Positions 56,797 to 57,785 of a stretch of DNA of 64,000 bases are shown here, in pieces (position 1 is the first letter of the stretch; the number at the start of each line of letters is the position of its first letter). The position numbers were made by a program, and so were the translations under genes. The stretch lies in the NCBI RefSeq assembly GCF_053078305.1, contig NZ_CP166879.1; one strand, written 5' to 3'. The notes beneath the pieces are model-generated. The model did not search any database. It worked only from the letters and a program-made list of their open reading frames with translations, and was not told where the DNA came from.

Positions 56797-56957
56797 TGAC
56801 TGCAGAAGAGTTGGTTGTCATACCGGTGTATATGATGCGGGATAAAGGCCCGGAGATTCCTGGAAATAAAATGTTCCGGGGAATATAAAACAGGGAAAAA
56901 CCGGATGTGATGGACGCTTCTGGCGAGGCGGTTTCATGAATTGTCCGTAATCAGGAT

Positions 56958-57785
56958 ATGTTGCCCGGTTACGCCGCGAATCTTGTGGCAGCAGTGGTTA
57001 TTATTATCGGGGGTATCGCTGCACGGATGATTTCTGGTGTGCTGAATAATCTGATGCTGGGCAGGAATATTGATGCCACAGTGGCGCTGTTCCTTTCCGC
57101 GCTGATACGTCATGCCATTATAGCCTTTACGCTGATTGCTGCCCTGGGACGTGTGGGGGTTCAGACAGCTTCCGTAATTGCAGTCCTGGGGGCTGCAGGT
57201 CTTGCTGTTGGACTTGCCCTGCAGGGGTCATTGTCAAACCTTGCAGCTGGTATTCTTCTCGTGATGTTCCGTCCTTTCAGGGCTGGTGAATATGCTGACC
57301 TGGGTGGTGTTGCCGGGACTGTGCAGAATGTACATATATTCTCAACCACGATGCGTACACTGGATGGTAAAATTGTTGTCATTCCGAACGGGAAGATTAT
57401 TGCCGGAGAGATTGTTAATTTCTCCAGGGAGCCTGAACGACGAAATGAGTTTATCATCAGTGTTTCATATGATGCAGATATTGACTGTGTGAAACAAGTC
57501 CTGACAGATATTGTGATGTCAGAAGAGAGGGTTCTGAAGAACAGGGAAATCACTGTTCGCCTGAATGAGCCTGGGGAGTCATCCATGAATTTTGTAGTAC
57601 GGGTATGGAGCAGGCGTGATGACCTTCAGTCTGTATACTGGGATGTACTGGAGAGAATTAAGCGGGAGTTTGATTCAGAAGGGATAAGTTTTCCATATCC
57701 ACAAATGGATATCCATCTTGTTCGCTCCGGGAAGCAGGCAGAGTCGGTAACCCATAACAGTCGCTCAGTCAGTTCCAGACAGTAA
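56958..57785 (+). CDS. MscS-family mechanosensitive channel paralog, N-terminally shortened
   Basis: 275 aa highly similar to remembered chromosomal MscS from TM1 onward (…[35 protein letters not shown]…); upstream in-frame sequence continues the homology but is interrupted by TGA at 56927-56929. Confidence 0.8.

Follow-up and report, generated by a model that had tools for sequence, protein, structure and literature searches.

A nonsense polymorphism at the Trp16 codon of an island-borne mscS paralog in Escherichia coli

The N-terminus of the mechanosensitive channel MscS of E. coli (YggB, b2924; PDB 2OAU, 6PWN, 6RLD, 7ONJ) has a debated structural role. Residues 1-26 have been described as a membrane 'anchor domain' that contains a conserved tryptophan, W16, and a variant lacking residues 2-26 (MscS Δ2-26) assembles but shows neither mechanically activated currents nor protection from osmotic downshock, with a yield of <0.1 mg/L compared to 5-8 mg/L for the wild type (Reddy et al. 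2019, PMC7299334). The substitutions E2A, V6A, L24A and L25A are likewise severe loss-of-function changes in MscS (PMC7299334), and W16Y is tolerated (PMC2820766). In native nanodiscs the N-terminus is disordered before residue 17, and it loses membrane contact in MD simulations (bioRxiv 10.1101/2024.01.22.576751, 10.64898/2026.03.12.711414). We also considered PDB 9P0O as a further N-terminal truncation construct, but its 265-residue chain beginning at residue 17 is the modelled part of full-length MscS.

Here, we analysed a second mscS gene located in a stretch of 64,000 nucleotides from contig NZ_CP166879.1 (RefSeq assembly GCF_053078305.1), hereafter the window. The 298-residue allele of this paralog aligns to E. 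coli MscS over residues 1-289 (E=3e-136), and both share the same four-domain Pfam architecture. The two genes differ in their surroundings, as chromosomal mscS adjoins argO/fbaA, whereas the paralog adjoins a Pmp3/YqaE gene and is present in <1% of E. coli genomes. Moreover, the paralog carries a C-terminal tail that is longer than, and unrelated to, that of E. coli MscS. Compared to the latter, the copy in the window has lost its start codon and carries a stop at the position of W16.

An in-frame TGA at the Trp16 codon

Sequence reading, translation and alignment placed an in-frame TGA at 56937-56939 (+), where E. coli MscS has Trp16. An earlier sequence-only reading had proposed a TGA at a Trp position in this gene; the stop does lie opposite W16, but the coordinates assigned to it, 56927-56929, were wrong by 10 nt (these bases read GGC). 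The protein string of that reading agrees exactly with the translation of 56886-57788. The TGA shares its frame with the open reading frame (ORF) that extends from ATG 56958 to 57785 and is positioned seven codons 5' of this ATG. Conceptual translation with an X for the stop gave a gapless alignment to residues 2-92 of K-12 MscS, with the X opposite W16. The homology 5' of Met 56958 claimed by the sequence-only reading thus reaches back through the TGA to MscS residue 2, and the 298-residue sister allele aligns W16 to W16.

At codon 16, the window reads TGA, as does each of the 12 sequenced TGA-class alleles. Alleles L003, L004, L007-9 and L021-25 have TGG instead, and the residue is also Trp in K-12 MscS. 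The sister alleles are otherwise near-identical and differ at codon 16 by a single base (TGG or TGA), and a stop at precisely the Trp codon therefore exceeds chance. A 56-nt probe across the TGA found 34 complete E. coli genomes, 16 of them with 100% identity and 18 with one mismatch; in all one-mismatch sequences that were read (L003, L004, L021-L025), the mismatch was TGG instead of TGA. The 16 TGA genomes originate from several countries and laboratories, and the exact 275-residue product encoded downstream of the stop is present on 348 public contigs. The change from TGG to TGA in the island-borne mscS paralog is a genuine, inherited and segregating nonsense polymorphism.

A second lesion affects the ancestral start codon. 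Here, the window has AGG at 56892-56894 (+), aligned with MscS Met1, where L003, L004, L018, L021 and L025 have ATG; three codons further downstream, CTT is replaced by CCG in the window haplotype. L003 and L004 encode an intact 298-residue protein starting MEKLDVMDASGEAVSW / MEKLDVMDASGEAVSWIVRNQD with TGG at codon 16. The sole upstream starts that remain in the window are GTG 56907 and ATG 56910, which open a residual upstream ORF (56910-56939, +; MDASGEAVS*) of nine codons, or ten if counted from the GTG, that ends at the TGA. ATG 56910 corresponds to Met7 of the 298-residue allele. Alleles that combine AGG with TGG (L007-9, L024 and the remnants L022 and L023) are annotated from this Met7 as MscS of 291-292 residues. 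ATG combined with TGA is found in L018 (strain N51). Each of the four possible pairings of start type with codon 16 occurs among the alleles, which points to recombination among them and to recombinant mosaics. The window and L003 haplotypes differ by eight substitutions in the 41 nt around the 5' UTR and the start codon (56863-56903), compared to a divergence of ~2% elsewhere.

The 275-codon ORF (56958-57785, +) corresponds to MscS residues 23-279, to which it is 78% identical, followed by the divergent tail of 19 residues. Encoded in it are the larger part of TM1, the complete TM2 and TM3, and the cytoplasmic beta and alpha-beta domains. The ORF scores 462.6 bits against the NCBIfam profile NF007662 (cut-off 321), and the match spans positions 25-283 of the 286-position profile, as compared to 1-283 for the 298-residue allele. 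PF00924, PF21082, PF21088 and PF05552 are all detected above their gathering scores and are also present in the 298-residue allele. In the pore-lining TM3, the stretch that corresponds to MscS residues 92-121 is unchanged and includes the L105/L109 seal and the Gly/Ala packing motif. Absent from the window ORF but present in the 298-residue sister is the complete N-terminus (residues 1-26 with the conserved W16, continuous with TM1).

Several residues of the remaining ORF have changed. V29A and L228P are common to all TGA alleles, and the main TGA clade additionally carries Q67L, V71A and R200C. The Pro at position 228 (CCT, 57570-57572, +) replaces a Leu (within NELG) that is found in K-12 MscS and in every TGG allele; R200C (TGT, 57486-57488, +) is confined to the main TGA clade, the other alleles having CGT (Arg). 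The Pro at position 25 (CCC, 56964-56966, +) is Leu in ATG-type alleles and in K-12 MscS, and L25P resides on the AGG haplotype. Singleton changes comprise V91G, S114A (conserved TM3 region), I78T and V192I. Within TGA alleles, L228P, V91G, S114A and V29A affect residues conserved in MscS, as does L25P. Met 56958 itself is not conserved, being ATA in L003 and CTG in K-12. In TM1, the window has an (ATT)2 run (57000-57005, +) where most relatives have (ATT)3, an in-frame deletion of one codon that removes one Ile. This short form is found on both TGA (window, L001) and TGG (L007-9) backgrounds, which indicates either recurrent slippage or recombination.

Distribution, polymorphism and island setting

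A megablast search with 56600-57900 placed the locus in 41 of the 5426 complete E. coli genomes searched, always on the chromosome and on no true plasmid. All but one of the genomes (5425 of 5426) possess canonical mscS, so that the paralog, found in 34-41 of them, is an accessory second copy, in line with the description as an accessory paralog made from the sequence alone. We conclude that the paralog is a rare, horizontally acquired second mscS copy that is accessory and island-borne. Public contigs carrying 298-residue alleles number 587, at least 1000 and 87, respectively. In a search of 5.8 billion proteins, the paralog formed a tight, E. coli-only cluster of at least 94% identity. The next matches below the cluster were the chromosomal MscS proteins of Klebsiella, Citrobacter and Escherichia at 75-78% identity, and the search returned no relative closer than this outside E. 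coli. A literature search on this island-borne MscS found nothing.

Two further possibilities were examined and rejected. One was a plasmid origin: the sole match in a plasmid collection is partial (31% of the query), annotated as YqaE/Pmp3 and located on a 1-Mb record, and all E. coli matches are chromosomal. A recurrence of the TGA in a second background appeared to be indicated by a cluster of 282-residue proteins beginning MVRNQDILLGY (P0008, P0011). The corresponding DNA sequences, L005 and L006, carry TGG, and since their contigs begin inside the gene, these proteins are contig-end artefacts.

Polymorphism was assessed in 17 full-length sequences representing 11 DNA haplotypes. The variable codons comprised 22 nonsynonymous and 5 synonymous changes in addition to one in-frame indel. 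This ratio is compatible with the neutral expectation of 0.75 nonsynonymous (p=0.66) and incompatible with the long-term constraint apparent from the comparison to K-12 (pN/pS 0.23 with pS saturated; p=2e-5), with the caveats that few codons were counted, that dN/dS within species is inflated in general and that recombination obscures the branches. The nonsynonymous to synonymous ratio was 14:4 within TGG alleles and 9:1 within TGA alleles. Judged from these sequences, polymorphism in the paralog looks near-neutral, in TGG alleles as well, and constraint may be relaxed, within the limits set by small counts and inflated within-species dN/dS.

The gene has also been disrupted by other means. 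IS1 interrupts it in L014, and ISEc8 is inserted at about nucleotide 603 of the gene in L019 and L020 and at about nucleotide 555 in the TGG-type allele L021. In L022 and L023, the sequence after ~112 nt is replaced by a gene of the endonuclease/exonuclease/phosphatase family. Together with the polymorphism, these disruptions make the paralog look dispensable in E. coli, with the TGA as one of several routes of loss. The island variant of L022 and L023 (1489-2747; strains Z1323MEC0001 and CFIAFB20190157) retains the order LuxR-LuxR-Pmp3 and the first ~112 nt of mscS, and strain CFIAFB20190157 carries both this mscS remnant (L023) and a full-length copy (L024).

The paralog resides in a mosaic island of low GC content (about 45%). 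Directly upstream, and always immediately 5' of the paralog, lies a gene for a small membrane protein of the Pmp3/YqaE family (56608-56796, +), a pair of membrane-stress genes not seen at the chromosomal mscS locus. In strain CFIAFB20190157, the Pmp3/YqaE gene is frameshifted in both copies (L023 1206-1393, L024 309-496). Further upstream are two genes for YadA-like trimeric autotransporter adhesins (49228-50970 and 53756-55021) with an IS66-family transposase ORF between them (52067-53680), and two LuxR/GerE regulators. Relatives matching the upstream part of the window are annotated with T1SS genes and a GA-like giant repeat protein. Over the 25 kb of 32000-56900, no complete E. coli genome covers at least 80% (best, 60% at 99.1%), and the island, with its T1SS genes and giant beta-strand-repeat/GA-like adhesin, is therefore highly mosaic between strains. 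The window contains no tRNA gene.

Downstream of the paralog, we found a PAPS-reductase/DUF3440 gene, a NERD+UvrD helicase, an IbrB-like gene, and DUF4198 together with a TonB-dependent haem receptor. Over its full length, the helicase (59320-61107, +; 595 residues) matches C3a187 ('NERD+UvrD'), a candidate defence protein in PADLOC (E=4e-135). The helicase gene is flanked on one side by the PAPS-reductase/DUF3440 (IbrA-like) gene (57911-59131, +), which has weak BrxP/DndC-like matches, and on the other side by the RefSeq IbrB-like gene (61289-61918, -). These three genes may form a defence or DNA-modification module.

Expression signals and the fate of the TGA allele

A scan for anti-Shine-Dalgarno (anti-SD) duplexes located an AGGA (56953-56956) 1 nt before ATG 56958 and 4 nt before TTG 56961. 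The usual spacing between a Shine-Dalgarno sequence and the start is 5-9 nt, and 1 nt is too close. Upstream of ATT 56940, the best duplex (CGAGGCGGU, -7.9 kcal/mol) ends 7 nt from the ATT and has its GAGG core ~11 nt upstream; ATT is a very poor start codon. Pairing upstream of ATG 56910 is weak. A simple scan of the + strand between the Pmp3 gene and mscS found no sigma-70 promoter and predicted no terminator, and a hairpin with T-run resembling an intrinsic terminator follows just 3' of the paralog (57816-57842, +). The lack of a terminator between the genes and the clear one behind them suggest that the Pmp3/YqaE gene and the mscS paralog are probably co-transcribed.

Every TGA allele is annotated by RefSeq/PGAP as an intact mscS of 281 or 282 residues that begins at the ATT directly after the stop (56940-56942, +), and not as a pseudogene (L001 6341, L002 3341, L011-L018 1237). 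Callers of the Prodigal type start the TGA allele at ATG 56958, giving 275 residues. ATT 56940 is probably an annotation convenience and no real start; PGAP appears to have extended the gene by homology as far as the first codon permitted 3' of the stop.

We consider the window allele to be a null or a severe hypomorph, i.e., an early-stage pseudogene of a dispensable accessory gene, and put the probability of this reading at roughly three in four. The window haplotype combines the two 5' lesions, ancestral ATG to AGG and codon 16 from TGG (Trp) to TGA. Ribosomes initiating at ATG 56910 would terminate after nine codons. As the 275-codon ORF lacks a well-placed ribosome-binding site, little protein would be expected, whether ribosomes re-initiate (at ATG 56958 or ATT 56940) or tRNA-Trp on rare occasions misreads the UGA. 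By analogy to MscS Δ2-26, a re-initiated protein without the periplasmic anchor domain (residues 1-22) would be expected to assemble inefficiently and to fail to open under tension; this part of the argument is carried over from a protein that is 78% identical. The debate on the structural role of the MscS N-terminus and the tolerance of W16Y also caution against pressing this analogy too far. Of the three options offered by the sequence-only reading, truncation came closest; the loss of the ancestral ATG, the segregation of the TGA as a polymorphism, the near-neutral evolution of the family with its repeated IS insertions, and the expected lack of the anchor domain in a product from Met 56958 had escaped it. 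Further counterpoints deserve mention. The ORF is far above the MscS family cut-off and still open in 13 of 16 TGA genomes, which says little given that the TGA allele is young (at most 0.5% divergence). Furthermore, termination-reinitiation is possible, with the AGGA and an in-frame ATG and TTG just 3' of the stop.

The latter leads to an alternative that we regard as improbable, though the best placed of those considered: a functional, N-terminally truncated channel of 275-281 residues, produced by re-initiation after TGA 56937 at ATG 56958, ATT 56940 or TTG 56961. Re-initiation after a nine-codon peptide is mechanistically possible, only 0-21 nt separate the stop from the restart codons, and the AGGA is close to both ATG and TTG. 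The ORF is intact, also by the PGAP call, and exceeds the MscS family thresholds; it retains TM1 to TM3 including a pore-lining TM3 identical to that of MscS, and the allele is common (348 contigs). However, an AGGA only 1 nt from the ATG is non-canonically spaced, ATT initiates very weakly, and Met 56958 varies between alleles and K-12. L25P, L228P and the IS insertions within the TGA class suggest an absence of selection to retain the ORF, and the corresponding MscS Δ2-26 is non-functional and poorly expressed (PMC7299334).

A somewhat less probable alternative holds that the stop is leaky and acts as an attenuator, not as a knock-out. Of the stop codons, UGA is the most prone to leakage, and a change of TGG to TGA is the sole nonsense change whose commonest misreading, here by tRNA-Trp, restores the original residue. 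Low-rate misreading of a message translated from ATG 56910 would yield a little 291-residue channel, identical to the product of the AGG+TGG allele, an existing allele with this start haplotype whose annotation is MscS of 291-292 residues. Against this, basal read-through in wild E. coli is expected to be low, and seven full-length subunits are needed per heptamer. The TGA is not conserved across alleles, and no read-through-promoting structure or SECIS element was detected: an Rfam search gave no match to SECIS or any other RNA element at E<=1, and the fold of the 66 nt around and after the TGA was no better than its shuffles (z=-0.40). The same observations leave read-through as a designed feature, another option of the sequence-only reading, unsupported. 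Even a read-through product would be missing residues 1-6 and contain both L25P and L228P, and E2A, V6A and L25A are severe loss-of-function changes in MscS.

Considerably more speculative is the idea that an anchor-less subunit from ATG 56958 co-assembles with the 78%-identical chromosomal MscS and thereby dampens or retunes mixed heptamers, which we regard as very unlikely. Reddy et al. expressed Δ2-26 in an mscS-null strain specifically to avoid co-assembly (PMC7299334), a choice which implies that co-assembly was considered plausible for MscS itself. If true, the paralog would encode a natural dominant-negative or modulatory subunit of the main low-threshold osmotic valve, located on a pathogenicity-type island.

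A sequencing or assembly error with TGG as the true codon, the remaining option of the sequence-only reading, is excluded for practical purposes, as the single base separating the window from intact alleles is TGA within an identical 56-nt stretch in 16 independent complete genomes, is followed by the exact downstream product on 348 contigs and is linked to the clade-specific V29A and L228P. Equally negligible is a programmed recoding of the UGA, as selenocysteine or otherwise: an in-frame UGA does lie inside a conserved coding region, but neither the Rfam search (SECIS families included) nor the downstream fold supports it, the codon specifies Trp in the ancestral state and in sister alleles, which lack the UGA, and neither Cys nor Sec, and the site is periplasmic or interfacial and not catalytic (PMC7299334).

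Comparison with known systems

Among described MscS variants, Δ2-26 ('Cryst', PMC7299334) resembles the predicted product of the window allele, which would begin at MscS residue 23 (or 17) and hence lack nearly the same anchor domain including W16. The two differ in that the deletion in the window is a natural one and removes residues 1-22 (or 1-16) instead of 2-26, and in that it occurs in a background of 78% identity with the additional changes L25P and L228P and one Ile deleted from TM1. With the 298-residue form, the form of 291/292 residues starting at Met7 and the form stopped at W16, the paralog provides a ready natural allelic series in which the role of the MscS anchor domain, a matter of debate, could be examined.

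With respect to its biology, the null or crippled allele that we favour is a minor and ordinary finding, one more accessory gene being lost where the chromosomal copy is universal. Its practical value lies in a caution on annotation: the RefSeq name 'small-conductance mechanosensitive channel MscS' is attached to TGA alleles, and pangenome and virulence-gene surveys will score a probably dead paralog as present. The locus otherwise resembles ordinary nonsense pseudogenes or null alleles of E. coli accessory genes, in that intact and disrupted alleles coexist and apparently near-neutral polymorphism is accompanied by several independent inactivations (nonsense, IS1, ISEc8 twice, and replacement). 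What sets the paralog apart from ordinary pseudogenes is that its lesion lies at the very 5' end of the gene and spares a long ORF, which is why annotation pipelines still call the TGA allele intact.
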